Source of the DNA: a virus
Lineage: Duplodnaviria; Caudoviricetes
DNA: 45,228 bases
Virus record (IMG/VR): IMGVR_UViG_3300032305_000487
Span: 1 to 45,228 of that record
Strand: one strand, 5' to 3'
Under the pieces are notes generated by a model. That model was not told the origin of the DNA. It did not search any database and was given only the letters and a program-made list of their open reading frames with translations. Below are positions 14,301 to 40,411 of the stretch, in pieces (the first letter of the stretch is position 1; the number at the start of each line of letters is the position of its first letter). The translations under genes and the position numbers were made by a program.

Positions 14301-14383
14301 CGGAAGACATGTACCACGGGGTGCAGTTGAACAAAAAGTTGCGCCCTATCATCGAGCAGTCAATCCGCGAACTGGAAGACTAA
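8333..14383 (+). CDS. Large (2016 aa) virion/ejection protein, polyvalent-protein-like, with a zincin metallopeptidase motif and a PLxRFG-like segment
   Basis: ARYDPKTNTIYL...ILHEAAH...LQEFAAE (HExxH plus downstream E) and HYVPLYRQGTYW. Last gene of the structural operon. Confidence 0.65.
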   Translation: MIVTLPKVGNVEFPDNLSPEQFDNLLGRLAEKYDFSIPKPDVGLGEIAKRGAMRGLGETSIALGDTLPAMIGSAVGAKEYSERQMKEAEASRQLLQQKYPTRFKSYKDINSPFEALEYGVETLGELTPTIATSIVPGVGGSVLGGRLAGGAAFKAATAAGVPTRAGLAGVETAAKAGAQKGMYGGVFMGSFAQNAPEVFEGIYRETGKFEPGVAALAGGFSAILDSVLPVGVLNSLGSYGKLKVIERMAKESGAAPKVWKYLGKEVSKSAATEGLTESAQEAIGAYAEQIAGSTKGLLDPENIQKYKEAFVKGAVGGAGFGVPGGIAAGRTAKKDYANTQEANEALKQQAAQEEAARLQPTGLQKQIEGQFPTAGNTQADMEAALAENEARKAHEIEINALQARMDEQRPGSRAYAEFEDAIKKSKAKMADDDAAKASQSAFSTAKPTPGTGGMFMPGVEKRRVENKISQEQGLRGFAFGDMGAQNAPKDPVTEQVLKALRIPARSNLTTELLGVDMATPEGVRKFIQTMENPQKTGTININEDNYQKVLDSLYADGRGGEIEAARAELQTEPTPEKTQKQQSATRQFAFGDINAGQPNAPTSGASTSVAPPPDQEGTAAGVGAPTGARVVSPKPDAGLPVVGEAEQSVAVDQNAAPVATTTTDTAPPVVSAKGRKATPVKATEIAPAETVEAQDIAKVNKTIKFGEDLKIAAEKLGRVASIKGMTEVAKDAHAYFSKVLPELALKAIANDLVYQPTAYRNSKMKAFKGDPEMTFGTQAEAEFFKGQGGVHAKNAAQWVRANLSPEAIAFMDKQIALYEKENASSQVHYAKTEKQQKVRKETKKQLATEAKEAAADKKKISVQKTIDDVYFGEATDTDLDNFINTGREGYFASPETAALHGEAHPVVLHMLERGDIAGALQALADSGSSGLVQRIAGSLVKYLGDVKLAVGEARYDPKTNTIYLPANASEYEILHEAAHAALSHVLANPSHPITRKLNKLFEQIKGDINGAYGATDLQEFAAEMWSNEVFRTRLKEMRTESPNLSMWDKIVNVLRKLMGYEPKQTSVVDAVDQMLNAIMGAPPAARYGESMYAQSIHKPNIAQQVMTSMDNTIMRQPVMSSERAVKFLAATERMGISFREATQRFLNLSALGEVGEKILGKDSMDFARSVDGMIGYREELRAKLKPIADRLNKYRQNANYDAWSRLVHESSRLDVNPEKPQSDYNGSPERMAAWTKFHAEFIKLTEEEKQLYRDTFGAYRGLFKELKGSLYSSLKETFPDEQAALSAYNKIIDQITKMGIDHYVPLYRQGTYWLTYTDKTNDAVSELYNSQAERDFARRKLEADGNTNFDEFSRIDQFTVKNVPRGTMAAQIVKIMREGNADDEAVNKFLQLIVAAMPEASLLKSFQTRKGTLGYENDVALAFGNVTQNVTRQLALMRYGDRMRRLVSNMKETAAGLRGQDQNRAVELINEFEARQEYAMNPKVADWARYASTGAFYFNLAGNASSAVVNTLQTPMIVYPLLGGKYGWVDSGRALMAALKLYSGSGAKREVTDINGNKSMQDSWLEVGLSIDNAVSMGKAPQYTALMQRLKDLGFLQTSTAYDALDVNDRPGKVVDKNTNLVHKTAVISTYMFHHAERMNREVTAVAAYELEMGRLKKKGITGDAAQAQAIEEAVKMVTFAHGAGHTESGPSIGHSDIGKVLTVFKRFGFTMYYMLFNTMNRALPVQGATGQQLEEIQAARRQLLGIYGTAALFAGVKGLPLYWIMEAAYNALNDDDEDDFDTVMRKYLGEFAFKGPVNYITNLGIADRVGWTDLIYRENKGGKADASALSQITEAILGAPYAIVNNMFRAAELANDGHMERAIETALPIALRNVLKGARYATEGVNTLRGDPVMGEVNGYNAALQVLGFAPADLLAQYEINAIAKKQGEEITKQEQSLLKKYYVAQREGDFERADMLEEKLFELGDKYPELKITGNTLNKSVKARDKISEDMYHGVQLNKKLRPIIEQSIRELED

Positions 14384-17587: not shown

Positions 17588-17833
17588 TCAGGGTTTTTTA
17601 GATTTGAGTGTCTTAATCAGGTCACGTATGGTGTCGCGCATAGCGGGATGGGGAAGTGACTTCCCCAAGAACCACATGTAAACAGCTTGCCGTGATACCG
17701 ATAAATACTCTGCTACGTCTTGCACAGGTATGTCTCTCAAAACGCATATGCGCCCAAGTTGTACACCAATGTGCTCGTTGTCAGCCGTTTTGTTTGCTTG
17801 TACAAACTTACGGGAGTAACCTTTGTTGTTCAT
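17588..17833 (-). CDS. Cro/XRE-like helix-turn-helix protein
   Basis: VQDVAEYLSVSRQAVYMWF HTH pattern. Confidence 0.8.
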   Translation of the reverse strand: MNNKGYSRKFVQANKTADNEHIGVQLGRICVLRDIPVQDVAEYLSVSRQAVYMWFLGKSLPHPAMRDTIRDLIKTLKSKKP

Positions 17834-26639: not shown

Positions 26640-26914
26640 TTGATTTCTCCAAAAAACGGTTCAGTGTTTTTGTCTGCCCATGCAGATTGGTCAGCCTTCT
26701 CAAGTTCACGTATGGCGTCGTACTGCTTGATGATGTCGGGGTATGTTTCTGCTATCCAATCCAACTTCCTACCCTCAAACACACTAAACAACTTCAACTC
26801 TTGTATGTCGGCTTCTAGTTTCTGTACGTGTTTACGTACGTCAGGGTGTAGGAATGGATTCTCTCGCCACTCCCCAAGTTCTTGCTCTTTCATCTTGGTC
26901 ATATCAGCCTCCAA
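26636..26914 (-). CDS. Hypothetical protein
   Basis: ORF in a tightly packed operon; the start may be the ATG at 26902. Confidence 0.6.
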   Translation of the reverse strand: MEADMTKMKEQELGEWRENPFLHPDVRKHVQKLEADIQELKLFSVFEGRKLDWIAETYPDIIKQYDAIRELEKADQSAWADKNTEPFFGEIK

Positions 26915-27506
26915 AAATTTGCTTCAGTCGGTCGTACAACCCACGTGCTTGGATAACTGACAAAGAGTTAATCACATCATCGGCTACCCACTCAACTGTC
27001 GCGGGTCTCCAAGACTTCATCGCTGTACCCATCTCCCCTACCTTCTTCTCAGGCACCAAGTCGCTAATGCCAACCTGTGTAGCCCTCGCTTCGCGCTTCG
27101 CTTCTTTTGCCGCACGTGCCATAGCCGCACGCTCGACCATACCTTTCATCTTGTCTTTCTCCGCTTTCTTGCGTGTCTTGCGTATGTCTTCGGGCACAAC
27201 AAAGTAAGTAAATGTTTGGCGCAAACCTCGTGCTGTTTTAACGGTAGCGCCATACCGGTCTAAGTAGTGTGCATCTGTCAACTGCTTGAGGATTGATGCT
27301 ATGTTCTTAAAACTAATATCGGGGTGCTTTTGCGTTATTTTGTCACGCAGTGCAACGCTCTCGATGTTTGGGTTGGCTTCGATGAAGCTCATAATTTTTG
27401 ATGTAATTGACTGTTTCTTTTCCACGGTCTTCTCCTGTATAGGTTGTTCGTCTTCTTTATCCCACTCTTGTATGACTTTAGCCATTTGTTCTCTTAAAGT
27501 TCCCAT
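26904..27506 (-). CDS. Putative winged-helix DNA-binding protein
   Basis: KIMSFIEANPNIES...NIASILKQL..AHYL.R followed by a beta hairpin and a basic helix. Confidence 0.45.
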   Translation of the reverse strand: MGTLREQMAKVIQEWDKEDEQPIQEKTVEKKQSITSKIMSFIEANPNIESVALRDKITQKHPDISFKNIASILKQLTDAHYLDRYGATVKTARGLRQTFTYFVVPEDIRKTRKKAEKDKMKGMVERAAMARAAKEAKREARATQVGISDLVPEKKVGEMGTAMKSWRPATVEWVADDVINSLSVIQARGLYDRLKQIFGG

Positions 27507-27793: not shown

Positions 27794-28049
27794 TGATTAC
27801 CTCCTTTAATTTCTGCATGTAGTGCCGTGCTTTACCCGCGTCGTCACTACCCTCTTTTCGTCCCGCACGTAGGGAATATTTAATTACGTTGCCCTTGAGA
27901 AACCCAATGAACTCCTCACGAGTAAGCACCGACTCCATCACATGCCACGGTTGCACTGCCATATCTTTGTAGTGGTTACCGCTCACCTGTATATCGTCTG
28001 CTGTTGTGCCGTTGAAACCTAGTTCTTCGTGTGTCATCTTTACTTCCAA
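27771..28049 (-). CDS. DUF3310 family protein (T7 gp1.7-like)
   Basis: QVSGNHYK...GFLKGNVIKY..RAG.K...D..KA.HY signature. Confidence 0.85.
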   Translation of the reverse strand: MEVKMTHEELGFNGTTADDIQVSGNHYKDMAVQPWHVMESVLTREEFIGFLKGNVIKYSLRAGRKEGSDDAGKARHYMQKLKEVINDPRKES

Positions 28050-28267
28050 AATTGTTTAAGTGCATCAGTCGCAAAAGTCTTTTGGTATTCCGTTTGTTTG
28101 GGTGTGGTTAACCTATTCTTTTTAGGCAACACCCCTTCAAATACCTCTTCTCTACTTTTAAAATGGCAAAAACAAAGTTTGCAATACCTTCTACGATAGG
28201 TGAACTCTTCGTTCTGAATTGTTTCAACAACCGCTATCTTGTCTCCCCCGCATTTGGGGCACTTCAT
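28040..28267 (-). CDS. NrdR-like zinc-ribbon protein
   Basis: MKCPKCG...V.ET.......RRRYC..C...F.S.E. Confidence 0.7.
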   Translation of the reverse strand: MKCPKCGGDKIAVVETIQNEEFTYRRRYCKLCFCHFKSREEVFEGVLPKKNRLTTPKQTEYQKTFATDALKQFWK

Positions 28268-28464
28268 TCTTCAGCCTCGTAAATATCTTTAGGTGGGACA
28301 ACGACATTGTTAGGTACCACCCCCGCATCCATCATCTTACGAATGATCGACATTTGTGACGGGTTCACAAATATCTTTGTGGGTGATGCTTGTATGGGCG
28401 ACGGGCCAATCATGCTGTTTAACTGCGCAATAGCTTCTTCTAGTGTCATTTCTTTATCGCTCAT
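28264..28464 (-). CDS. Hypothetical protein
   Basis: 66-aa ORF coupled to its neighbours. Confidence 0.55.
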   Translation of the reverse strand: MSDKEMTLEEAIAQLNSMIGPSPIQASPTKIFVNPSQMSIIRKMMDAGVVPNNVVVPPKDIYEAEE

Positions 28465-28569
28465 TTATATATCCTCTCTACTAATCATCACGATTGCTAT
28501 ACCAACGGCAACAACAAGTATTGCGCCAAGGCACATTAGAAATACTATCCATGCGACTGTTTCTAGCAT
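28465..28569 (-). CDS. 34-aa single-pass membrane peptide (not in the ORF track)
   Basis: MLETVAWIVFLMCLGAILVVAVGIAIVMISREDI; GGAGG RBS. Confidence 0.6.
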   Translation of the reverse strand: MLETVAWIVFLMCLGAILVVAVGIAIVMISREDI

Positions 28570-28571
28570 TT

Positions 28572-28742
28572 TTACCTCCAAAAATAAACAAAAATTAATC
28601 CGCAAATAATGAGACTTGTAACCGCAATAAATAATTTATTGTGGCGTGGTTGCTCGGGTGGATACCACCACTTTTGACTCTCGAACGCTTCATTGCACGT
28701 ACGTGGGAACGTACGTGTGGTCGTGTTTAGTTCTTCATTCAT
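28572..28742 (-). CDS. 56-aa protein with C-terminal membrane anchor (not in the ORF track)
   Basis: MNEELNTTTRTFPRTCNEAF...LFIAVTSLIICGLIFVYFWR; fills the gap between neighbours. Confidence 0.6.
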   Translation of the reverse strand: MNEELNTTTRTFPRTCNEAFESQKWWYPPEQPRHNKLFIAVTSLIICGLIFVYFWR

Positions 28743-29202
28743 TGTTAGCCCTCTCTTTGATGTAATACAGCTTGTCGTGTATCTTCATGCCCAGTTCATC
28801 TACCTTCTCGTTAGCATCACTGATACGCAACATGGACACGCTCTCCATTACCCACTGCGGTACGTCTACTTGTGCTAGGTTTTTCTTTATCCTACCTTCA
28901 GAACTTGGCAATGTAAAGTCTACAATATTAAACGTCCCGTCCTCATTGATAGAAACCCTCAATACGTCTTGCGATAGGTTGTCGGCAACCATGCCATGTG
29001 TCAGCATGGTGTACACACGTACTGCGTCATACCAAACACCTGAGTACCGCATGTCTAGGCTAATGGATTGGGACAACGGTGTCGGTGGCATGTCTAGGCT
29101 AATGGATTGGGACAACGGTGTCGGTGCTTCGGGGTGGTTGACCAACCGTTCGTAGTCTTCCCAACTTGTGAACGGCGGTGCGCCGTCCTTCGGAATAATC
29201 AT
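28735..29202 (-). CDS. Hypothetical protein; C-terminal domain similar to that of 29199-30086
   Basis: 155-aa ORF with an internal 13-aa duplication. Confidence 0.65.
   Translation of the reverse strand: MIIPKDGAPPFTSWEDYERLVNHPEAPTPLSQSISLDMPPTPLSQSISLDMRYSGVWYDAVRVYTMLTHGMVADNLSQDVLRVSINEDGTFNIVDFTLPSSEGRIKKNLAQVDVPQWVMESVSMLRISDANEKVDELGMKIHDKLYYIKERANNE
29049..29126. repeat. Perfect 39-bp tandem duplication
   Basis: GCATGTCTAGGCTAATGGATTGGGACAACGGTGTCGGTG at 29049-29087 and 29088-29126. Confidence 0.95.
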
Positions 29203-30086
29203 AGGAACACCCAGTAAGTTGTGCTATCAATCTTCACACCAACGTCCATGATTGGCTTGCCTTTGTTACCGATTTGCAGAACCGATACCTTGTTCATAAT
29301 GTCCTCGGGAACATCGTGTAGGTTGTACACCACTTTGCGCTCTTCACCCTCAATCTGGTACTCAACCTTGTCTTTTTTAGCCCACACAAAACATGACTTA
29401 GGTTTGTAGTTCAAGACATTCTGAATCTCAGCATCTTCTTCCACAATGATGCGTATAGCTTCGGTGAACTCTGTTGTGATTGGCACATACCCAAGGCGCA
29501 CCATGTTGCGCACTTCGTCAATGATTGTGGTACGCCCTACGTTTGAAACCCTGTGCAACTTATCTTGAGACGGGGCGCGTAGTTCAGACATAGCACTGCT
29601 CAATTCGGAACTGTTCTTGTCCTTCATTTCTTCAAACAGCATGGGTTTCAAGAACTGCACGGCGTTCTTTACGGCATTGGTAAAGTTCTTTGTCTTCTTT
29701 GTTTTGTACCCCTTGCTATAGGACGCGAACTTATCATTGGTTATGCGCTCTGATGTAACTGTGTACATCAACTCACCCTGTGCACCACCATCGTTCTCCA
29801 ACCCAATCCTCCCTACTTGAATCTCAGGGCAGTCCTTGTAGGCAATACCTAAGTCAGCAAACACGCGATAGTCTTTGCCGTTGTAGTTACTAGCGTGCGT
29901 ATCGAACCTAACCACAATGTCAGGACGCTTGTGTTTCAACTCGTTGTAGAACTTCAATGTGTTATGTGCTACTGGAATCTCATCGTTAATCCAATGCTTG
30001 TGCCCGTTCTCGCGTGCTTCGTTCACAATGTGCACATACTTATCGTATGGCGTCTTGTCACCTACATAGTCTTCTTTCTTAATCAT
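29199..30086 (-). CDS. Hypothetical early-region protein
   Basis: 295-aa ORF, GGGGGAG RBS. Confidence 0.7.
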   Translation of the reverse strand: MIKKEDYVGDKTPYDKYVHIVNEARENGHKHWINDEIPVAHNTLKFYNELKHKRPDIVVRFDTHASNYNGKDYRVFADLGIAYKDCPEIQVGRIGLENDGGAQGELMYTVTSERITNDKFASYSKGYKTKKTKNFTNAVKNAVQFLKPMLFEEMKDKNSSELSSAMSELRAPSQDKLHRVSNVGRTTIIDEVRNMVRLGYVPITTEFTEAIRIIVEEDAEIQNVLNYKPKSCFVWAKKDKVEYQIEGEERKVVYNLHDVPEDIMNKVSVLQIGNKGKPIMDVGVKIDSTTYWVFL

Positions 30087-30285
30087 GGTTAACTCCCCCC
30101 TTAATACTGGTTATTCTTGCCTTCGTAATGACCGCTTTTGCAAGCAAGTCATACAACTTCAACGCACTACCTTCATCTAGCTCCTGCCTGTCGGCAACTG
30201 TTAACAACTCTTGGACGGTTGTTTCTATGTACGCCAGCCCGCGCCGACGTTCCTCTGAACTCATCTCCCTTAAATATCTTGCCAT
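30079..30285 (-). CDS. Hypothetical protein
   Basis: 68-aa ORF with GGGAG RBS. Confidence 0.6.
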   Translation of the reverse strand: MARYLREMSSEERRRGLAYIETTVQELLTVADRQELDEGSALKLYDLLAKAVITKARITSIKGGVNHD

Positions 30286-30288
30286 GTT

Positions 30289-31263
30289 TTACTCCCTGTA
30301 GTTATTGAAGAAAGGTGTGCCGATTGGTACACTCTCTCGTCTAAACGGACGCGCTAGTCGATACAACTTCTCATTGCGTTTGTACTTCTCACGCAATGAC
30401 TCTGCGGTAGGCACTACGTGCTTACTCGACCGTATGTTTGAGTTTGCGTCCCATTCGGTTTTGTACCAAGTATGTTTGACCAAAAGCGCATGGATACCAT
30501 CGACCCAACGCTCACCATACTCTTCACCATCTTTTCGTGAAAGCCAATCGTAGTCTTGTAAATAGTTGGTCGCGCTATCTTTCTTTTTCCATGACACAGC
30601 GCCTTCGACATCGGGGTCAAACCCAAGCAAGTCAGCCATTGGTTGAAAGTAATTTAAGAACGCTTTGAAGTCTTCACGCACTATCTTGGCTCTGTCGCGG
30701 TCTAGCACTACCTTTGATTCTTGCACTACGCCATGTGTTGGCTTGTAGTATTTAACGCCGTTGCTTTCGTACGGTACGAAAGTCATATCCAACCCGTTGT
30801 TGAAGTAATACATCGGCTCTTGCCCATCGGGTTGTGCGCACTTGTAATACATCTTAGAACCATACTTCACAAACTTAATACTCTCAGGCAATAACGCTGA
30901 AATTGTTTGGTATGTGGAGTAACTATACATATAGGTTGGCGTCAGGCGTAACGCACCATGCTCGTTAATCATTAGCAACGGCTTGACGTCATCGGTGAAC
31001 CCAGACAACTCATGCTTTTTTGTAGTTGGGTTTAATTCGTGTGCGCGGTAGATAGAACGAAACGCCATACCTACCCACCCATCTTTCTCGTACCAAGTCT
31101 CCCAAGTGCGTGCGCGTTTGCTCAATGGTCGGCAGTCAACGCCGAACTTCTTCTTAGTTCCCTGTATTGGTTTGGTTGTGTCGTACAGCTTCTTGGTAGT
31201 TGCGTAGTCCACCATGCGAATGTTGTACCCGTAAAAATGTTGTGCGTTGTATTCGTTTGCCAT
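30289..31263 (-). CDS. Hypothetical early-region protein
   Basis: 324-aa ORF with GAGGA RBS; contains one copy of the 17-bp palindrome. Confidence 0.7.
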   Translation of the reverse strand: MANEYNAQHFYGYNIRMVDYATTKKLYDTTKPIQGTKKKFGVDCRPLSKRARTWETWYEKDGWVGMAFRSIYRAHELNPTTKKHELSGFTDDVKPLLMINEHGALRLTPTYMYSYSTYQTISALLPESIKFVKYGSKMYYKCAQPDGQEPMYYFNNGLDMTFVPYESNGVKYYKPTHGVVQESKVVLDRDRAKIVREDFKAFLNYFQPMADLLGFDPDVEGAVSWKKKDSATNYLQDYDWLSRKDGEEYGERWVDGIHALLVKHTWYKTEWDANSNIRSSKHVVPTAESLREKYKRNEKLYRLARPFRRESVPIGTPFFNNYRE

Positions 31264-31290
31264 AAAGTCCTCGCTTTCTTGATACCTGTA

Positions 31291-32466
31291 TTAACTAACA
31301 TAGATTGCTTTGCCGACTGACGGCGTAGGCTTGTACCCACCTGTGATAGCCCAAAGAACGGGGTGTTCCCATGTACCCCACCCACCAACATATCCATCGG
31401 TGAGCACTACGACACACTCCGGCTTGAGTCCTTTGTCTTTGATGTATGCGGGAATACATGATGGGTCAGTACCCCCACCACCTTCGGGCTTCGTAGACTT
31501 AACCAAGTCACCCAACTTGTCGCGTCCATATATCTCATGCGATGCCACCTCTGTATCCCAATACAGCAAGTCAACTAACTCAGGTTGCACATTGATACAG
31601 ATAGCCTGTACCTCTGACAAGAACTCGTTGAGTGCTTCACCACCGATAGAACCCGATGTGTCGATAGCGATGACGATGCGCCCCATAGATTCTGATAGCG
31701 TGCTTGGCATATACATGTCGTGTTGCAACCAACGACGATTGACCTTCTGCCATGTGGATATATCTTTACCATCGGCTAGTGAGTTGATGTAGTCGCGTAA
31801 CTGCTCACGCCAATCAACCTTGGGCTCGACTAACTCACCCAATGCTCGTGACTGATTGCCACCCATCTTTCCCGCCATGAGTTGCCCCTGACGGATAGCT
31901 TGATTGACTTCCTTGATGTGCTCTTCAATTTCTTTCTGAGTCATACCCGATGGAGTCCAGTCATGCGAATCTAAACCCGCACCTTCATCACCGTCACCAC
32001 CCTCACCATGTCCTTCTTCTCTCAGTATGTCAAACACTTCTTGTGAGTTCATGTCACGGAAACGCTCATCAAGTAGTCCGACCTTGGGCAATGTCACGAA
32101 CCCACGCGATGCTTGGGATATATCGTAGATGATTAGGTTAATCACATAGTCACACGCCATGTTTGCGCATCGTGCGTTCTCTTCATACAAGTGACGCCAC
32201 AAGAATGTATGTTGGAATGTCTTGTGAAGATTCTCGTGCATGATGAGTCCACGCAAGTCGCTGTCCGATAAGTCACCTATAAACTTACTGCCATACATAC
32301 AGTCGATGCCGTTGGTACAAGCAGTAGGTACATCGTCCGACACCTTGTACTTCCCGACCATGATGATGCTTGCATACTCCATAGTATCTTTGTGTGCCAT
32401 GAGTTCAACATGGGCTCGCTCAATCCGCTTGATAGCGGGTAGTGCTTGGGTTGCTGTTACAAACAT
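31291..32466 (-). CDS. HExxH metallopeptidase-like plus vWA domain protein (DUF2201-like)
   Basis: PTACTNG, IMHENLH, NMACDYVIN; acidic Gly linker; MIDAS IDTSGS, GGGTD, LTDG. Confidence 0.88.
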   Translation of the reverse strand: MFVTATQALPAIKRIERAHVELMAHKDTMEYASIIMVGKYKVSDDVPTACTNGIDCMYGSKFIGDLSDSDLRGLIMHENLHKTFQHTFLWRHLYEENARCANMACDYVINLIIYDISQASRGFVTLPKVGLLDERFRDMNSQEVFDILREEGHGEGGDGDEGAGLDSHDWTPSGMTQKEIEEHIKEVNQAIRQGQLMAGKMGGNQSRALGELVEPKVDWREQLRDYINSLADGKDISTWQKVNRRWLQHDMYMPSTLSESMGRIVIAIDTSGSIGGEALNEFLSEVQAICINVQPELVDLLYWDTEVASHEIYGRDKLGDLVKSTKPEGGGGTDPSCIPAYIKDKGLKPECVVVLTDGYVGGWGTWEHPVLWAITGGYKPTPSVGKAIYVS

Positions 32467-32495
32467 TTGATTTCCTTTCTTTCGTACCGTACGAA

Positions 32496-33575
32496 TTACT
32501 TACGGGCAAACAGATAGTTGTTATCTGCCGCCCACTTAGCGAACATGGGGTTAGTTGCCGCGACTGCACGCTTGGGGCACATGTCACTCATCACGCTTCG
32601 TGCAAACAAACCTTGCGATTCCTTGCTCATGCGTGGTAAGAACTGCATCCATGCGTCCATCGTCACCTTCTCAATACGCTGTACCGCTTTGGCTATCAAC
32701 ATACACGCCGCCGCCGCACTCGTTGGCACAGTAGCAGTTGTTGGTGATTTGATTAGGTCGTCCCATGAAGTGAGCTGAGTATCCAATGTCACCATCGTCA
32801 ACATGTTGTGCATAGCCTTCTCACCGACCGTACCCTTCAACGCATGGCACATGATGTCGTTGCCAAGAATCATTGTGTCGTTGATAACATCTGAGGACGC
32901 TTCCAATGAGCGTGGTGTAACAACCGCCATACGAACATCTCGTGGGTCATTGATATACATGTTCTGCTCAGGCTTCTCGTAGTCCTCGAACGATGCCAAC
33001 ATCTCAGGAAACTCTTGGATAGTCGCAATGACAATCGGATTCCAGTTGTTGTTGATTGCATAGGTAATCAACTCCTCTGCGTTGGGCTTACCCACTCGTG
33101 TCTGAATCACACGGTTGCGAGCATGTGGCGGTACATTGTCACCAATACCCTCGACACTCAAGTTAGTAGTGGCGAACACAATACCGTCCAAGTCATACAC
33201 ACCAAGCGAACGCTCTTGCATAAGTCGTAGACATGCGTTCATCACGCCACCCTTAGCCTTGCCCAACTCATCGAGCATCATCACAATCTTCTTGCCCTTG
33301 AAGTGCAAGCCAAACTCTTCGTTGGGTACAAAGCGACACACCTCGTTGCCGTCAATGTCCTTAATCTTTGGCACCATGAAGTCGCCCACATCTTTCGTTG
33401 TGATGTCAACATAGCAAAAGAAGTAGTCCTTCAACTCAGGTTTGTTACGCAACATCTTGAGGATTGATGACTTACCAATACCCATCTCACCTTGCGCTAA
33501 GACAGTCCGCTTGTGACCGACCGCCAAGATTAGGTCAGCCGTTTGTTGCAGAGATAAAGATTTATATAAAGACAT
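32496..33575 (-). CDS. MoxR-type AAA+ ATPase
   Basis: Walker A GEMGIGKS, Walker B MMLDE, sensor FATTN, RNR arginine finger, TPRS sensor II. Confidence 0.88.
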   Translation of the reverse strand: MSLYKSLSLQQTADLILAVGHKRTVLAQGEMGIGKSSILKMLRNKPELKDYFFCYVDITTKDVGDFMVPKIKDIDGNEVCRFVPNEEFGLHFKGKKIVMMLDELGKAKGGVMNACLRLMQERSLGVYDLDGIVFATTNLSVEGIGDNVPPHARNRVIQTRVGKPNAEELITYAINNNWNPIVIATIQEFPEMLASFEDYEKPEQNMYINDPRDVRMAVVTPRSLEASSDVINDTMILGNDIMCHALKGTVGEKAMHNMLTMVTLDTQLTSWDDLIKSPTTATVPTSAAAACMLIAKAVQRIEKVTMDAWMQFLPRMSKESQGLFARSVMSDMCPKRAVAATNPMFAKWAADNNYLFARK

Positions 33576-33655
33576 GTGATTCCCCTTTCAAAGGATTGGA
33601 TTAAAAAACAAAAAACAAATCAACTTTCGTACGGTACGAAACCGTACGATGAAAC

Positions 33656-34525
33656 TCACATCGAAAACTTGTCAAGCATGGCGTCAACCTTCTGCTTGGT
33701 CTGCTCTCGTGTTAAGTCACTCTCACGCAATACCGATGCGTCAATGCCACGCATGGTTTCCTCCAACTCCATACGCATAGCTTCCATGCGTACATCACCA
33801 GTGATATTGAAGTGGCGCAACAACCCACAAACTTCTATAGCGTTCTCAACTAATGAGTCCCTGAATATCTTGCGCTTGCCATCTTCTGTATCAGACAGTC
33901 GCTCACTCATGCGAGTCAGCACATCGTGCAACCTATCCCACGCATCTTGCATGGCGTCATTCACACGGGTACTCAACACATCTTCGTAGTGCTGTTTCAT
34001 CTCGCGCAGTCCTTCTTCACCAATGTCTACACGGAAGTCACCCGCAGTAGGTAGTGGCGTGAACGCATAGCGAAACCCAAACTTACTAACCACTTGCTCA
34101 CGCAAGGGGTAGTCCTCACGATTAAACAAGTCACCCAGTTGGAAAGCGGCGGACGATACAAGCGTGTCGTACTCATTCAAGAACGCGTTGACAGATGTAG
34201 TGAACTGTTGCTCGTACTCAGTCAGTCGTGATTTGTAGTCAATGAATGTCACCATGTTCAACACCCTGTCACCGTTGTCACCCCAAGGTTGCGTCACCGT
34301 GTAGTGCCATGTACGCACAGCGTTTGCCACCTTGGTTATCTCCTCCAACTTGCCCGAACCCGCCAACAAGTTCTTGTGGTAGTTACCCGCCCGAGTCTTA
34401 GTCGAGTTCTGTTGGTCAACCGCTTCGCTCACCCGCTTGTCCAACTTGCGCCCCGTCCATACAGACAACGACAAGTTAACGATGAGGGCAGAGCCCGACA
34501 ATTTAGATACAACAACTTCTTCCAT
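33656..34525 (-). CDS. DUF3150-like protein
   Basis: LIVNLSLSVWTGRKLD N terminus, long helical body, DYP....V..KF.F motif; position next to AAA+ and vWA genes. ATG at 34525 follows the RBS AAAGGGA. Confidence 0.6.
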   Translation of the reverse strand: MEEVVVSKLSGSALIVNLSLSVWTGRKLDKRVSEAVDQQNSTKTRAGNYHKNLLAGSGKLEEITKVANAVRTWHYTVTQPWGDNGDRVLNMVTFIDYKSRLTEYEQQFTTSVNAFLNEYDTLVSSAAFQLGDLFNREDYPLREQVVSKFGFRYAFTPLPTAGDFRVDIGEEGLREMKQHYEDVLSTRVNDAMQDAWDRLHDVLTRMSERLSDTEDGKRKIFRDSLVENAIEVCGLLRHFNITGDVRMEAMRMELEETMRGIDASVLRESDLTREQTKQKVDAMLDKFSM

Positions 34526-34595
34526 TTGATTCCCTTTCGTACGGTACGAAACCGCGTTTGATTTACTTACACACAATACTAACTAACAAGCCTAT

Positions 34596-34624
34596 ATTAT
34601 AATAGCTTTACACAGGCTTGTCAA
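34596..34624 (-). promoter_or_regulatory. Perfect consensus sigma70 promoter
   Basis: TTGACA-AGCCTGTGTAAAGCTAT (17 nt)-TATAAT on the minus strand. Confidence 0.9.
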
Positions 34625-34636
34625 GTCCTACTATCT

Positions 34637-34861
34637 TTAATCCCTCAACATCTTTTGGTTTGTTTGTTTTAGGGTCTTGCTCGCTGCCGCTTGTGTAACG
34701 AACATGTACCCACCCTTGCCGTACTCTTGCACCACAGTCCACGACTTGCGTTCTGCCCGTGCTTGGTCTTCGCCACAAAACAGACAGCACTTGTACCCAA
34801 GTTGCCACCGTGCTTCGGGGAAGTCGTCACCACACACATTGCATTCTTTCCATTGGCTCAT
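34637..34861 (-). CDS. Small zinc-finger protein
   Basis: CNVCG...CCLFCG; AAGGAGAG RBS. Confidence 0.65.
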   Translation of the reverse strand: MSQWKECNVCGDDFPEARWQLGYKCCLFCGEDQARAERKSWTVVQEYGKGGYMFVTQAAASKTLKQTNQKMLRD

Positions 34862-35205
34862 GCGTACTCTCCTTTGTTTGCTCTTTCAACTAAACCTACA
34901 CCACCACATATGGCGAGCACATTCATGTCCTCCACACCACACTTCACAGTCGGCACACCTGTCGGTCTGCATTGGGTAAGGTGCTTGCTTGTCGTTCGGC
35001 TGAACTTGCTTGCGTTCTCGTACCATGTATCGGCGTGCTCGTCATACACAAAGAGGGGCCATGTGTATCGGTAAGAGTAGACAACATACAACTTGTTGTC
35101 GTATGCGTTCTGCCCCCACTCACCCCACACATTGCTACCTCTGAACGGACGGCGCTCGTCCACCATGTCCCTAGCCTTGCCGTTTGCAATCATCTTGATG
35201 CTCAT
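34858..35205 (-). CDS. Hypothetical early protein
   Basis: Aromatic-rich, YVVYSY...WYEN..KFSRTTSKH; start 35205 or 35232. Confidence 0.65.
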   Translation of the reverse strand: MSIKMIANGKARDMVDERRPFRGSNVWGEWGQNAYDNKLYVVYSYRYTWPLFVYDEHADTWYENASKFSRTTSKHLTQCRPTGVPTVKCGVEDMNVLAICGGVGLVERANKGEYA

Positions 35206-35222
35206 ATAGTTCCCCTGTTTAG

Positions 35223-35399
35223 TTACTTCCATTCTTGTCTTTCAAGTTTCAAGCGGTCACGCTCTGCAATCTGTGCCTTGGCTTTCGTACCGTACGAATA
35301 TTCTCGGTTGTTTTCCTTGCCCACGAACATGCCAACCCACAACATCTTGTGCTGTGTGTGTTTGCGGTTAGTCTCTTTACGCTCTAATTTATTCTGCAT
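35223..35399 (-). CDS. Small basic hypothetical protein containing a palindrome copy (SYGTK)
   Basis: ATG at 35399 with AAGGAG RBS. Confidence 0.5.
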   Translation of the reverse strand: MQNKLERKETNRKHTQHKMLWVGMFVGKENNREYSYGTKAKAQIAERDRLKLERQEWK

Positions 35400-35559
35400 C
35401 ACCATCTCCTTTTTCATTGAGGGCAACCCATGCAACTGCACCTGTGAGCGCACCCGCAAACACCAGCCCCGCTTCAAACAACCAACCACCTCTGTCGTGG
35501 CATAACACCAACATAACAAAAGCCATCATCAAGTACACCATCATTTCAACTTTGCTCAT
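35389..35559 (-). CDS. 56-aa two-helix membrane protein (not in the ORF track)
   Basis: MSKVEMMVYLMMAFVMLVLC...LFEAGLVFAGALTGAVAWVAL; AAGGAG RBS, ATGA overlap. Confidence 0.6.
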   Translation of the reverse strand: MSKVEMMVYLMMAFVMLVLCHDRGGWLFEAGLVFAGALTGAVAWVALNEKGDGDAE

Positions 35560-35804
35560 TTTGTTTCTCCTTTAATACCGCGCATGGCGGCGTAAGTTAC
35601 AGCGTCCAACTCATCGTCCCTAAAATAATCCCGTGTGTCCTCGTGCATACGCCCCGCTTTCACAATGTCATTCAAGAACATCACGCGTTTGTATAGCGCG
35701 TCCATGAACTCGGGGTGTAGCGTTTCCACGGCTTGCCAAAAGTTGTTGGTCTTGCCGAGCACCAACAAGCCCGCCATCTCGTCCATATCTAATTCGATTT
35801 TCAT
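35556..35804 (-). CDS. Hypothetical protein
   Basis: 82-aa ORF, AAGGA RBS, ATGA overlap. Confidence 0.6.
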   Translation of the reverse strand: MKIELDMDEMAGLLVLGKTNNFWQAVETLHPEFMDALYKRVMFLNDIVKAGRMHEDTRDYFRDDELDAVTYAAMRGIKGETK

Positions 35805-36076
35805 TTGATTAGTCCTTTCTCATACATTTGTTTAATCATCGTGCCGTGAATGATTGAGTACCCACGCTTGTGCCCTTCGTCACGCATCCAATGAATCTCG
35901 CCCTCGTTGGTCAGGTCAAACTCACCCGCTGAGTAGCAACAGAAATGAATGGCAATCTCAAACGAATCAGACGAATCGAACCATTTGCCCTCAGCGTCTA
36001 CGCACCCATAGAAGTCCAACTTATCAGCGTAGTACCGCTCATACTTTTTAAATTCTTCCCATGTTTTCATCGCCAT
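35801..36076 (-). CDS. Hypothetical protein
   Basis: 91-aa ORF, AAGGGAG RBS. Confidence 0.6.
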   Translation of the reverse strand: MAMKTWEEFKKYERYYADKLDFYGCVDAEGKWFDSSDSFEIAIHFCCYSAGEFDLTNEGEIHWMRDEGHKRGYSIIHGTMIKQMYEKGLIK

Positions 36077-36417
36077 ACTCCCTTCATGCTGTCTACCTTG
36101 CCCTTGGCTTTCGTACCGTACGAAAACTCAGGCACATACCAAACATACAGTCCGTTCTCATTCAGCAACATCTTGTCTGTATACACCTCATCAAGACTGT
36201 CTTTGTCCATCTTGATTATTTTGTCCGCTGAGGGTATGCGCACGATGTAATCGTTCACCCCCTTAATTACTGTCGTGCTTGGTACGCCCGACAAGTGCGC
36301 CCACTTCTTAGCCAGCATGACCATGCTCATGCGTGATGAGCGGTCAGGCAGTTTTATCGTGGTGCGTTTCACCGTGGCGTTGGTGTCGCTGTTTATCAGT
36401 TCTAAATTGAGTCGCAT
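36067..36417 (-). CDS. Hypothetical protein, first gene after the 36.5-kb promoter; contains a palindrome copy (SYGTK)
   Basis: 116-aa ORF, AAAGGGA RBS. Confidence 0.6.
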   Translation of the reverse strand: MRLNLELINSDTNATVKRTTIKLPDRSSRMSMVMLAKKWAHLSGVPSTTVIKGVNDYIVRIPSADKIIKMDKDSLDEVYTDKMLLNENGLYVWYVPEFSYGTKAKGKVDSMKGVWR

Positions 36418-36511
36418 GGTTTCCCTTTCTGTTGACCCTTACACATCGGGCTTTCGTACCGTACGAAAGTTGCCGAGTCACTCGAAACGCTTTTATTCCG
36501 AATGAGCCTTA

Positions 36512-36540
36512 ATTATAAGGGATTTACATGGTCTTGTCAA
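36512..36540 (-). promoter_or_regulatory. Perfect consensus sigma70 promoter
   Basis: TTGACA-AGACCATGTAAATCCCT (17 nt)-TATAAT on the minus strand. Confidence 0.9.
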
Positions 36541-36612
36541 GTTGTTACTAGGTGGTATAGGGGGGTATATCCTCTTAATAGTTCTTCAATGTTCTAGGGG
36601 GTGGAATAAAAT

Positions 36613-36625
36613 TAAGTCATTGATT
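36613..36625. promoter_or_regulatory. IHF consensus site
   Basis: TAAGTCATTGATT matches YAANNNNTTGATW. Confidence 0.6.
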
Positions 36626-36830
36626 GGTAAGGCTTTTTTGGGATGTTTGGGTGCATTATTCTAATATTCCGTGATTTTGGGAATTTGAGCGAGACAAAAC
36701 AAAGGAAGAGAAAATTCGCAGAAATGCTTTCGTACAGTACGAAAGTTGGTACGGTTAAGCAGATAAAAAATTTAGACTGTATATATATTTATTTTATAGA
36801 ATAATAGAATAATAGGGAATTTTGCTGTGC

Positions 36831-36843
36831 TAAGTTGTTGATT
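36831..36843. promoter_or_regulatory. IHF consensus site
   Basis: TAAGTTGTTGATT matches YAANNNNTTGATW. Confidence 0.6.
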
Positions 36844-36941
36844 TAAAAGGCTTTTGTTTTATTCTCGTATGCAGAATATTGCAGAACTAAATAGAGGATA
36901 TACCGACTTGCAACAACTTGAACCATCTTGACGCTAAACGC

Positions 36942-37057
36942 GTACGGCCAACTTCGAGGATACAGGTTTCGGGGGAGTAAGGGTTTCGTACCGTACGAAA
37001 GGTTGCAGAGTGTTTGCCATAAGTTGTTGTACGGCCAGCTTCGAGGATACAGGTTTC
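36942..37057. repeat. 29-bp direct repeat pair (28/29 identical) flanking a palindrome copy
   Basis: GTACGGCCA(A/G)CTTCGAGGATACAGGTTTC at 36942-36970 and 37029-37057. Confidence 0.9.
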
Positions 37058-37182
37058 ATAGGGTAGGGGCTCAAATGGTGAGCCTGCCAAGTCGTCTCGC
37101 TTCGGCACGCGTCAAGGTGTTGTAGTGTGTTCATAGTGGCTAAGAAGCAGGTACAGGTATCACAGCCCAAAATGTTTGGGCG

Positions 37183-37210
37183 AAAAAAAAGCCCCGATTT
37201 CTCGGGGCTT
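37183..37210 (-). terminator. Intrinsic terminator after the 37225-37746 gene
   Basis: Minus strand AAGCCCCGA-GAAA-TCGGGGC followed by T8. Confidence 0.9.
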
Positions 37211-37224
37211 AGTGGTTTAGGTGT

Positions 37225-37746
37225 TTACTCTTTGATTTCGATGCCTTCAGATTCTAGGTAGGATTTCACGCCTTCAAATAAGGTTGTGATTTCGTCATTC
37301 TCGAATGACGCTTGAAGGTCATTGATAAACCCTTCAAAATCAGCGTCACGGAAACATGTAGCAAGTTTAGCTGAAAACTCTTTGGTTGCCTTCGCGCCTT
37401 TGCTTGCACCCTTTGCCTTTGCCTTACCGCGTTGACCATTCCAATCGGTGACTGGTTTGCCTGATGCGACATGCGCTTTGAATGTAGGCAAGTAGGTTTT
37501 TTGCATGGTGCTCTGTTTCAGCCCCTTAGCAATACCGCCGTCAACAAACGCGGTGGCAATGGCACAACCCGTGCCGTCTTGCTTATAAGTGCCTACAACA
37601 ACTTTCGCCTTATGCAAGGCGAGAATGTTAGTGTTAGCCGCTTCACGCTTTGCTTCAGCCGTAAGTAACGCGCCTTGCATTTCGCCTATTGCGTTGCCAC
37701 ATTCTGTAGCAAGTTGAACATTAGAGAGAGTAGAGGATTTAGTCAT
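37225..37746 (-). CDS. Hypothetical protein, first gene of the leftward (early) arm
   Basis: 173 aa, AAAGGA RBS, own terminator; K/A-rich linker and acidic C-terminal helices. Confidence 0.75.
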   Translation of the reverse strand: MTKSSTLSNVQLATECGNAIGEMQGALLTAEAKREAANTNILALHKAKVVVGTYKQDGTGCAIATAFVDGGIAKGLKQSTMQKTYLPTFKAHVASGKPVTDWNGQRGKAKAKGASKGAKATKEFSAKLATCFRDADFEGFINDLQASFENDEITTLFEGVKSYLESEGIEIKE

Positions 37747-38226
37747 GGTGAATTCCTTTCGTATGACTGTATCTAATCAGAGCCAATCCCTGAGTCGATG
37801 GTTGAACTGTATCACACCTAGCAACATCTTGCACGGGATAGATACAAATTTACACTTTCGTACTGTACGAAAGTTTGAGCGGTATAGCGACCCCACCCCC
37901 CGCTTTTAAAATTAGGTACCATACGCGCTACTACTACTCTAATCCGCTCATTAGATAACCCATTTTTAGAAATAGGTACTCCAGCTATACATGTTCTACA
38001 CAATTTTTCAACTAGTCTTAACATACCCAAAGATGTTGTAGTAAAAGAAAACCATACAGGGCCCGCTGCTTAAAGCACCCCCCCACCCCCCTTCCTTTTC
38101 TGCCACGACTTTCTATGGTCCTTTTTTAGAAAACACCCCCCGTCACTTTTATTTTTTCGCACCCCCGGGGGGTATATATTTTTTGTGATATATTTGCCCC
38201 AACTTCGGAGTGCCAACTTTCCTCCT

Positions 38227-38862
38227 ATGATTCTTGTTACACCAGAACTAAACGTTCCTGCTCCGTTTACCATGACGGACGAAGAAATTCTCAGCATCCA
38301 TGAGAAGGCTAAACTCGCCTTCAATACAGTAGAGTTCTTGCGGGCGAATGGACTGGATGATGCAGAGACTGCTGTAACCACAGAAGACAAGAAAACTGCA
38401 CGCTCAGTTTTCATGGACAACCCCACCACAACGCTGGCAGATATAAACACGCCGGGCAAAGCACTGATGTTGAAGGCTTTGCTGGATGAGTACGATATTG
38501 ACGTGATTCGTAACGCCCAGCAAGTGCGGTCATACATTAAGCTCAAGTTGCTAGAGAAGTCCGACTGCGGGGATAACAAGGTTGAACTGAAAGCCTTGGA
38601 GATGCTGGGCAAGATGAGCGATGTGGGCGCGTTTGCCGAACGGGTGGAAATTAACGTTACACACCGAACCACGGAAGAACTTGAAACCGAGTTGGCTAAC
38701 AAGCTGTCTCAGTACTTGGGCGACATCATTGATGTGGAAGCAAAGAATGTGACGAGTATGGACGTGGTGGCTAGAGCCCCAGCAGTTCAGGTAATAGATA
38801 TAGACGCCGAGTTGGGGTTTGTGGGTGGCGAATTGGAAGAAGAACATGACAACACTGAATAG
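38227..38862 (+). CDS. terS: Putative terminase small subunit
   Basis: Directly upstream of and overlapping TerL; helical, LKALEMLGK motif typical of TerS oligomerisation regions. Start uncertain. Confidence 0.55.
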   Translation: MILVTPELNVPAPFTMTDEEILSIHEKAKLAFNTVEFLRANGLDDAETAVTTEDKKTARSVFMDNPTTTLADINTPGKALMLKALLDEYDIDVIRNAQQVRSYIKLKLLEKSDCGDNKVELKALEMLGKMSDVGAFAERVEINVTHRTTEELETELANKLSQYLGDIIDVEAKNVTSMDVVARAPAVQVIDIDAELGFVGGELEEEHDNTE

Positions 38863-40411
38863 TCTGTTCCAAAATCCAAAGGCGGTTGAGGCAATACAGA
38901 ACTTGACTACGCCACAACTGCACGCACTAATAAAGCGGTTTCCTAAAGATGAGCAGGGAGCAATCACCGACATCTTGGAAGAACTGCGGACACGGAAAGT
39001 GCGCGTAAAGGCGCAAGAAGACTTCATGGAGTTCGTTCATGCCGTCTGGCCTTCGTTTATTCATGGCAAACACCATGAGCGAATGGCAAAAGCGTTTGAG
39101 GAAGTGGCTAATGGTGAGGTCAAACGCCTGATTATTAACATGCCACCCCGCCATACGAAGTCCGAATTTGCCTCATACCTGCTTCCGGCTTGGTTTTTGG
39201 GTAAATATCCGCAGAAAAAAGTGATTCAGACGTCCCATACAGCGGAATTAGCCACTGGGTTTGGTCGAAAAGTCCGAAATTTGGTGGATTCGGACGTTTA
39301 TAAGCGGATTTTTCCCCAAATTGAGCTACAAACGGACTCAAAAGCGGCTGGACGGTGGAATACCAACTTTGGCGGCGACTATTTTGCGATTGGTGTGGGG
39401 GGCGCGGTCACTGGTAAGGGCGCGGACGTACTAATAATAGATGACCCGCACTCAGAACAGGAAGCCGCCATCGGTGCGTACAACCCAGAGGTGTACGACA
39501 AGGTGTATGAGTGGTACACGTCAGGTCCACGTCAGCGTCTCCAGCCGGGTGGGGCGATTGTGATTGTGATGACGCGTTGGTCGCTACGGGATTTGACCGC
39601 TCAAGTGTTGAAGTCCGCCGCCCAGCGGGGTGGGGAAGAGTGGAAGGTGATTGAGTTACCTGCAATCTTGCCTAGCGACAAACCGCTGTGGCCGGAGTTC
39701 TGGTCTGAGAAAGAATTGAAGGCGCTTCGGGAAGAACTGCCTACGGGCAAGTGGATGGCGCAGTACCAGCAGCAGCCCACCTCAGATACAAACGCTATTA
39801 TTAAGAGAGACTGGTGGAAGTGGTGGGAAGACGACCGTCCACCGTCCTGCGAGTTCATTATTCAGTCTTGGGATACGGCGCATGAGGTCAAGAAAGTAAA
39901 TGACTACTCTGCTGTTACGACATGGGGTGTGTTCTACAACGAGGAAGACCGAGGTCTACCCAATATTATTTTGCTTAACGCAGGGAAGAAACGGTTGGAG
40001 TTTCCTGAGTTAAAGAAGTGGGCGTATGAAGAATGGGAAGAATGGAATCCAGACTCATTCCTTGTTGAAAAGAAAGCGGCGGGTGCACCTCTCATTCAAG
40101 AATTCCGTGCGATGGGTATCCCAGTCCAAGAATACAGCCCGGGAAAAGGACAAGACAAAATCACCCGACTAAACAGTGTTGCGGATTTATTTGCATCAGG
40201 TAAAGTATGGGCACCGCAGACGCGCTGGGCGGAAGAACTCGTGGACGAAGTTGCGTCCTTTCCATCCGGGGAGCATGATGACTTGGTTGACTCAATGACA
40301 CTTGCGCTGATGCGATTCCGTTCAGGTGGTTACTTGCGTCTACCTAATGATGAACAAGAAGACACCAAATATTTCAAAGGCTACAGCCGTGACAAGTACT
40401 ACACCGTTTAA
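38846..40411 (+). CDS. terL: Terminase large subunit
   Basis: INMPPRHTKS (Walker A), LIIDDP (Walker B), VMTRW, QSWDTA and HDDLVDS nuclease motifs. Confidence 0.95.
   Translation: MTTLNSLFQNPKAVEAIQNLTTPQLHALIKRFPKDEQGAITDILEELRTRKVRVKAQEDFMEFVHAVWPSFIHGKHHERMAKAFEEVANGEVKRLIINMPPRHTKSEFASYLLPAWFLGKYPQKKVIQTSHTAELATGFGRKVRNLVDSDVYKRIFPQIELQTDSKAAGRWNTNFGGDYFAIGVGGAVTGKGADVLIIDDPHSEQEAAIGAYNPEVYDKVYEWYTSGPRQRLQPGGAIVIVMTRWSLRDLTAQVLKSAAQRGGEEWKVIELPAILPSDKPLWPEFWSEKELKALREELPTGKWMAQYQQQPTSDTNAIIKRDWWKWWEDDRPPSCEFIIQSWDTAHEVKKVNDYSAVTTWGVFYNEEDRGLPNIILLNAGKKRLEFPELKKWAYEEWEEWNPDSFLVEKKAAGAPLIQEFRAMGIPVQEYSPGKGQDKITRLNSVADLFASGKVWAPQTRWAEELVDEVASFPSGEHDDLVDSMTLALMRFRSGGYLRLPNDEQEDTKYFKGYSRDKYYTV

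Follow-up and report, generated by a model that had tools for sequence, protein, structure and literature searches.

A dispersed palindrome array in the early arm of an uncultured tailed phage and the first early protein as its probable reader

The virus record IMGVR_UViG_3300032305_000487 (Duplodnaviria; Caudoviricetes) comprises 45,228 bases, analyzed here in full (hereafter, the window), and the early arm on its minus strand carries ten copies of a 17-bp palindrome. The first gene of this arm encodes a protein of 173 residues, here termed gp1, and comparison with related phages indicates that gp1 is very probably the reader of the palindromes. With somewhat better than an even chance, the ten palindromes would be double-stranded DNA sites at which a bound gp1 dimer damps transcription of the early arm by the host polymerase, the gene for gp1 included. 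The comparative evidence for the identity of the reader is strong, and the effect of binding is what we infer from the arrangement of the sites.

All ten copies listed in a first-pass annotation of the window were recovered at their positions: eight are exact, and two (32480 and 35283) have a terminal mismatch, the final A being read as T in both. They fall within 30765–37872, and a scan at up to three mismatches added no copies in the window, while 100 shuffles of the window gave a mean of 0.00 exact copies and at most two at three mismatches. As had been noted, the core arms are invariant (positions 2–8 and 10–16) and the center is free (G, C, G, G, C, C, C, A, C, and T, in order of position). 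The spacing between sites (1715, 1145, 910, 748, 826, 343, 276, 256, and 872 bp) narrows as a trend and not monotonically, the last step being from 256 to 872. The proposed confinement to the early arm is borne out to the extent that no copy lies elsewhere in the 45 kb; however, the window is a fragment, as indicated by five complete relatives (classed as 100% complete) of 60,860–74,238 bases and by the end of the window, which falls within a gene, and two relatives (G001 and G002) hold one further site each, inside a homolog of the gene at 26904–27506. The placement classes also needed one amendment: the site at 34535 is in a leader, the ATG at 34525 following it.

The exact motif was found in 21 viral contigs, 17 of which share at least six proteins with the window, the remaining four holding one site each; by these counts the motif is a lineage trait. 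Relatives keep the layout of the array in three versions, TTCGTAC-N-GTACGAA (G type), TTCATAC-N-GTATGAA (A type), and TTCCTAC-N2/3-GTAGGAA (C type). Protein searches, which did not use the motif, identified a phage with an 86%-identical ATPase that carries TTTCATAC-N-GTATGAAA, and a clade with 48% terminase identity that carries TTCCTAC-NN-GTAGGAA. Scans for the site types and for gp1 homologs turned up A1-type gp1 hits in 188 sources, one of them the window, and comparison of the last 120 residues left 74 distinct proteins (43 G-type, 29 A-type, and 2 C-type); the C-type loci longer than 3 kb (31) were analyzed apart. Complete relatives have 5–16 sites each, and in one of them (G003) all nine sites lie within 46.8–54.8 kb. 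Of 332 distinct sites, 324 fit the type of their locus at positions 5 and 13 (164 G..C in G-type loci and 160 A..T in A-type loci). The earlier remark that compensatory changes are absent is correct within the window, but between genomes both arms change together, in every copy of a given genome simultaneously, a pattern that suggests a change of reader and not the folding of a stem.

Residue 84 of gp1 is Thr in 43/43 G-type distinct loci and Val (20) or Asn (9) in 29/29 A-type distinct loci, and it is the sole column of the gp1 alignment that separates the types fully (the runner-up column is 90% accurate). Contact of Val with the thymine methyl group would fit the change from G-C to A-T. On a gp1 tree built with columns 74–90 omitted, the type changes at least nine times, and the residue follows in 6/6 independent pairs on supported branches (p 0.031); six type changes were counted on a terminase tree (38 rows; shuffled mean 13), and four on an ATPase tree (20 rows). 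Four sibling contigs with near-identical gp1 regions differ, at the same downstream site, at positions 5 and 13 only, and also in a short patch coding for residues 78–84 that looks like a product of recombination. The sibling alignment rules out that the motif is encoded at codon 84 itself. As a control, 24 window genes with at least four rows of each type were compared in the same manner: 16 have no separating column, and gp1 has one with 43 vs. 23 filled rows. Only gp1 has a separating column at a large number of rows, and covariation with the motif singles it out. The first-pass annotation had named gp1 as one of four candidate binders, for which covariation and a predicted dimer (see below) now speak, along with two helix-turn-helix (HTH) proteins (17588 and 19067), which are not supported as readers, their predicted recognition helices being the same in both site types: VSRQAVY or VSRQAAY in the former, and VSRQTVY in 13/14 rows of the latter, irrespective of type. 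For this comparison, the G012 row for 17588 was left out (a mis-hit on the other HTH protein), and the control at 17830, with only two rows, is uninformative.

The case for gp1 as reader has to be set against several observations that detract from it. Eight of the 332 sites are off-type, among them a complete A-type site and a clean hybrid, both in Thr84 loci. Because loci were collected through motif scans or through peptide patterns with [TV] at the key position, other states are under-sampled. Supported pairs number only three on the terminase tree and two on the ATPase tree (p 0.25 and 0.5, respectively), and seven other genes have separating columns, at 17 rows or fewer (e.g., E49 of the HTH protein 19067, with 5 vs. 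8 rows). The A-type site is accompanied by two residues, Val and Asn, and Asn also occurs with the C-type site, so the residue–base code is not one-to-one. Part of the covariation is linkage, with gp1 lying beside the nearest sites and many loci having only one or two sites. Linkage accounts for the nearest site; it does not account for covariation at the site inside the open reading frame (ORF) 30289–31263, which is 6.5 kb away and is kept in 10/10 distinct homologs (33–77% identity), with a change from Val to Ile that accompanies the type. At two further in-gene sites, the type switch changes Thr to Met.

Site type and gp1 residue could both track the host if the palindrome were the site of a host regulator. 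The promoters of the early arm are of the host sigma-70 type, which would accommodate such a regulator. Nevertheless, a sample of 400 genomes from the phylum of G016, which may or may not include the host, contained seven sites in six genomes, vs. 11 for the reversed control; near-identical siblings differ in type; and most carriers of the exact motif are relatives (17/21 viral contigs, with a single site in each of the other four). We regard a host regulator as extremely unlikely.

The structural model of gp1 (mean predicted local distance difference test [pLDDT] score 84) comprises a long helix (9–46), helices 62–73 and 78–95, and three C-terminal helices, with a Lys-rich linker (110–121) of low confidence. 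A symmetric homodimer is predicted, with a score of 0.80 vs. 0.00 for the best control, contacts that agree by at least 75% between runs, and pLDDT of at least 79; the mark used for dimers is reached by 20/30 solved pairs and 1/23 single chains. The best predicted contacts (26–26, 19–37, and 13–44) are those of an antiparallel coiled coil. Of helix 78–95, the candidate recognition helix, only residues 81, 85, and 89 are named in the predicted interface, residues not named being uncertain. The model supports gp1 as a two-fold reader for a two-fold site.

Homologs of gp1 number 260 at 90% clustering, and its central domain forms 140 clusters at 50% identity, nearly all of 80–270 residues, with a conserved T-x-x-N-Y-L helix. 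There is no match to gp1 in PHROG, Pfam, or NCBIfam, no homolog in the cultured-phage collection, and no Pfam hit in 39/40 distant homologs scanned; Foldseek searches of PDB and BFVD had no match at E 0.001. The best VIA-align matches (Z 5.2, rmsd [root-mean-square deviation] 3.4, 84 aligned residues; Z 4.6, rmsd 3.1, 63 aligned residues) are both chorismate-mutase folds, in the range of common helical arrangements, and demonstrate neither a new nor a shared fold. Chorismate mutases lead both fold searches (Z 4–5), and the remaining distant homolog (P0347) has a sub-threshold match to Pfam CM_2 (E 1.2e-4); for gp1 residues 5–98, an AroQ-like scaffold is a weak lead. PF25746 (0.78) and DUF3102 (0.80–0.82) came up as low Atlas leads.

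The sites are very probably double-stranded DNA elements read by a phage protein, as opposed to a hairpin in mRNA or extruded single-stranded DNA that is read by gp1 or a nuclease. An mRNA hairpin should tolerate G-U pairs and keep its pairs by compensation. Compensated pairs are absent from 174 T-type and 105 V-type sites, and 153 C-type sites have 6 vs. 13 expected; G-U vs. A-C counts in the T, V, and C sets are 4:1, 0:5, and 8:22, such that G-U is not favored. C8 and G10 are invariant despite being unable to pair round a 1-nt loop, the first site precedes its promoter at phased distances, and there is no Rfam match in 28000–39000. Several copies do abut ribosome-binding sites, as a hairpin might, and two findings count against gp1 as a reader of duplex DNA. 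One is the set of 63 Asn/A sites, in which eight outermost pairs are compensated vs. 2.3 expected (maximum seven in 500 shuffles), these coming from three genomes. The other is the mixture of 2-nt (129) and 3-nt (24) spacers within C-type genomes, although a flexible dimer can accept mixed spacers, as bZIP proteins do. We consider a hairpin very unlikely. The first-pass proposal of sequence-specific recognition of double-stranded DNA by a symmetric protein is supported, with a phage protein in that role.

In 59 contexts, the putative gp1 promoter is downstream of the first site, at a distance of 12–15 nt (20), 21–25 nt (30), 28 nt (2), or 31–35 nt (7). These distances step by one helical turn, which argues for duplex DNA; a Rayleigh test on the 14 distinct distances gave p 0.013, kin not being independent. 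The C-type first site is 11–13 nt upstream of the promoter in 14/17 loci with a called promoter, among 30. Among 331 sites of relatives, 54 promoter–site pairs are found at 32–46 nt, and the remaining sites are at gene junctions, beside ribosome-binding sites, and within genes, with the highest density directly after gp1. Beside these placements, several minor features of the region around the gp1 promoter were recorded. The sequence CTATCCC (37835–37841), which adjoins the putative −35 box of gp1, is conserved in the G and A types with a variable gap to the site, and is possibly a second element. C-type loci (e.g., L431, L432, and L445) have a variable number of GACAA repeats between the first site and the promoter, and most of them have a site 1–5 nt past the gp1 stop codon.

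Repression is the net effect of gp1 binding that we consider more probable than not. The gp1 gene would be expressed first, from its sigma-70 promoter, and the gp1 dimer, as an antiparallel coiled coil, would present two copies of helix 78–95. It would occupy the site upstream of its own promoter, in helical phase, and would act as a roadblock within genes, at their junctions, and 32–46 nt behind the strong promoters of the early arm; accumulating gp1 would turn that arm down. Some features of the array run counter to this mechanism. None of 331 sites extends into a −35 or −10 box, which is an unusual geometry for a repressor. Neighboring sites show no helical phase of the kind associated with looping (p >0.17 at seven periods, and p 0.056 in a post hoc subset of neighbor gaps below 150 bp). 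Phased binding upstream of a promoter would suit an activator equally well.

Class I activators bind at phased upstream positions of this kind, and gp1 could act positively, activating its own weak promoter from the upstream site and helping the polymerase through the early arm. A non-consensus −35 box follows the first site at 12, 22, or 32 nt, spacings that differ by a helical turn, and promoter cores are never covered by a site. However, the other early promoters are perfect consensus sequences with the site downstream, the in-gene sites have no place in activation, and the first promoters of C-type loci frequently have TTGACA already. We view activation as unlikely.

Alternatively, gp1 could be a DNA-organizing, entry, or protection protein, the dimers of which compact, anchor, or pull the first-entering arm, with secondary effects on transcription. 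Over 17 long loci, site density peaks just after gp1 and drops with distance (57, 30, 19, 15, 14, and 9 sites in the first six kilobase bins from gp1), and on the terminase side no bin beyond 1 kb holds a site; such a gradient, the non-coding and in-gene sites, and the Lys-rich linker and extra C-terminal domain of gp1 would all suit this role. It leaves the fixed promoter distances and the repeated specificity changes unexplained, neighboring sites are not phased, and it presupposes that this arm enters first. On this evidence, an organizing role appears improbable.

We also considered that gp1 is the immunity repressor of a non-integrated carrier state, with the G, A, and C types as immunity groups of a temperate phage. 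The entire early arm is covered by sites, and specificity variants among close kin are a mark of cluster A immunity systems (PMC6550527). Matches to tyrosine and serine recombinases (PF00589 and PF00239) and to ParA and ParB (PF13614 and PF02195) were found in 0/5 complete relatives (controls were found in 10–14/14). A gp1 scan of genome contigs found no prophage, the one locus being a 9-kb phage contig in a metagenome-assembled genome, which was not counted as host evidence; moreover, gp1 is first in, and co-directional with, a lytic early arm. Such a state is rather unlikely. The missing recombinases and partition proteins also weaken the preferred reading of gp1 as a repressor, as they remove the usual lysogeny basis of immunity repressors. 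Since gp1 would act in trans, a phage of the same site type that arrives later would have its early arm silenced too, and such silencing of same-type kin would favor repeated type switching; this would supply a reason for specificity variants without lysogeny. In its widest form, which we regard as doubtful, the coiled-coil dimeric readers (140 clusters) would provide a self/non-self code in phages that lack an integrase and are apparently lytic: the protein made first would silence the early arm of any later phage of the same site type, and escape would come from toggling one residue through recombination of the helix patch, with all 5–16 sites following, even those in genes.

Dispersed palindromes that are read by dimers, some of them far from promoter cores, are known from the inverted repeats of phiC31 repressor c, KorB operators, and parS/ParB; ParB and KorB have a ParB N-terminal domain and a partner ParA. 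Neither gp1 nor its homologs have a Pfam match to the phiC31 repressor c, KorB, or ParB families, and no ParA or ParB was found among the 59 window proteins. Partition, one of the roles entertained in the first-pass annotation, is not supported in its ParAB form, with PF13614 or PF02195 in 0/5 complete relatives. The description of the array as an undescribed system holds for its parts, but dispersed phage operator networks are already a known kind. No description of the motif or of gp1 was found in the literature covered, which lacks most subscription papers; in PMC9599517, “palindrom” has no occurrences, and PMC4909266 proved irrelevant.

The closest parallels are the stoperators of cluster A mycobacteriophages and the SPbeta repressor system; the gp1 system would work like stoperators or MrpR, yet it fails their defining features. 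The cluster A repressors (L5 gp71 and that of TipsytheTRex) are reported to be monomers that bind more than 20 asymmetric 13-mers, with a proposed stop to elongation (PMC9283540), and the motifs are described as varying among kin and giving graded immunity (PMC6550527). Shared with these stoperators are the many near-identical dispersed sites, the single phage protein that reads them, and the variation of the motif with the repressor among kin. In contrast to the 13-mers, which are oriented with transcription (PMC9283540), the site here is a perfect palindrome; the cluster A repressor is described as a monomer with two HTH-type domains, whereas gp1 is a predicted homodimer with no Pfam HTH and no clear fold match; and cluster A phages are described as temperate, with an integrase or parABS, neither of which was found in the five complete relatives. 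Unlike in cluster A, one residue here tracks one base pair. MrpR (YopR/SroF) of SPbeta binds the repeated element SPBRE with a recombinase fold; like the palindrome here, SPBRE was first spotted in silico, and subsequent work identified it as the binding site of a master repressor with a non-standard fold (PMC10516654). MrpR has the full tyrosine-recombinase fold (core-binding and catalytic domains) in about 320 residues and keeps lysogeny, whereas gp1 has 173 residues and no PF00589. A gp1 profile (A6) has a weak match (E 0.7) to residues 15–33 of 2oxo (lambda integrase core-binding domain), which is absent from the fold-search lists.

Among cultured phages, Pag-Yong1 (OL906435) has the same plan (terminase 46% identical), its divergent early arm including DUF3150-like, ATPase, and VWA-like genes; in length and terminase score, MinM2 and Pra-JY27 equal Pag-Yong1. 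Pag-Yong1 carries a palindrome, GTTCAG-N-CTGAAC, with 19 matches in 41.6 kb (4386–35447), many just before ribosome-binding sites, but of different sequence and with 6/19 matches outside the early arm. The first early protein of Pag-Yong1 has no detectable homology to gp1 (scores of 2 bits or less). In DSL-LC04, no repeated palindrome was found in the 34 kb examined.

The joint change of specificity in a regulator and its dozen sites is a long-standing problem, for which deeply diverged systems have usually been compared; here, a switch of one residue and one base pair recurs among close kin, two siblings even having hybrid sites, which makes the question directly testable. If correct, the proposed role of gp1 would add a family of DNA-binding proteins without a Pfam or fold match, and would extend operator-based control or exclusion to phages without a sign of lysogeny. 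Small orthogonal repressor–operator pairs would also have practical use.

Table 1. Palindromic sites, the gp1 gene, and associated control elements in the window (coordinates in bases of the 45,228-base record).
Feature	Position	Strand	Context or basis
Site 1	30765–30781	.	Codon 161 of ORF 30289–31263; kept at codon 160–173 in the homologs
Site 2 (one mismatch)	32480–32496	.	Between ATPase stop and leader of DUF2201/VWA-like gene
Site 3	33625–33641	.	Junction of DUF3150-like gene and ATPase gene; additional partial half-site adjoining
Site 4	34535–34551	.	44 nt past −10 box of promoter at 34624; abuts ribosome-binding site of DUF3150-like gene (ATG 34525)
Site 5 (one mismatch)	35283–35299	.	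Within ORF 35223–35519, close to 3′ end
Site 6	36109–36125	.	Codon 98 of ORF 36067–36417
Site 7	36452–36468	.	43 nt past −10 box of promoter at 36540
Site 8	36728–36744	.	Non-coding, AT-rich DNA
Site 9	36984–37000	.	Beyond gp1 terminator, flanked by two copies of a short direct repeat
Site 10	37856–37872	.	21 nt upstream of putative gp1 −35 box, 109 nt upstream of gp1 ATG
Perfect sigma-70 consensus TTGACA-17-TATAAT	34596–34624	−	Consensus scan
Perfect sigma-70 consensus TTGACA-17-TATAAT	36512–36540	−	Consensus scan
Intrinsic-terminator-like hairpin 3′ of gp1	37189–37210	−	Follows gp1
gp1, first early gene (173 residues), likely reader	37225–37746	−	Covariation and model
gp1 helix 78–95, candidate recognition helix	37462–37515	−	Holds residue 84 (model)
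Codon 84 (ACC, Thr)	37495–37497	−	Thr with G-type, Val/Asn with A-type sites
Putative gp1 promoter GTGCAA-17-TACAGT	37806–37834	−	Alignment of relatives; under the threshold of the consensus scan

Further observations concern the surroundings of individual sites. The direct repeat of approximately 28 bases that flanks the site at 36984 lies at 36940–36970 and 37029–37058. Close to the 3′ end, the small early ORFs 36067–36417 and 35223–35519 each include a site that is read in the same frame (EFSYGTKAK and EYSYGTKAK, respectively); they are otherwise dissimilar. Indels in related contigs end at or beside sites (window 32468–32496, 33588–33610, and 35806–36108), and one locus (L209) has a site where its siblings show only a terminator tail and a ribosome-binding site; sites may arise from, or bound, exchanged cassettes. 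A G-rich run, GGGGGGTGGGG (minus strand, 37885–37905), is located just outside the first site and is kept in nearly all relatives; it may mark a genome end or packaging region.

In the overall plan of the partial genome, the minus strand encodes PolA, an SNF2 helicase, and a DUF927 primase, and the plus strand encodes the terminase, portal, and GroES; the early arm marked by the sites starts with gp1 at 37746 and diverges from the terminase genes. A single 8.9-kb contig from an independent run (X11) covers 31270–38991 piecewise, in the same order. The closest cultured phages by terminase are DSL-LC04 (57%), 023Pt_psg01 (56%), and HTVC027P (52%). Across the window, GATC (25 vs. 114 expected), GGCC (48 vs. 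149), and many 6-base palindromes are strongly avoided, and GTAC is not; this pattern suggests restriction pressure. A protein of 2016 residues encoded at 8333–14383, with a PLxRFG domain and a DarB-like C-terminal part, is probably ejected from the virion.

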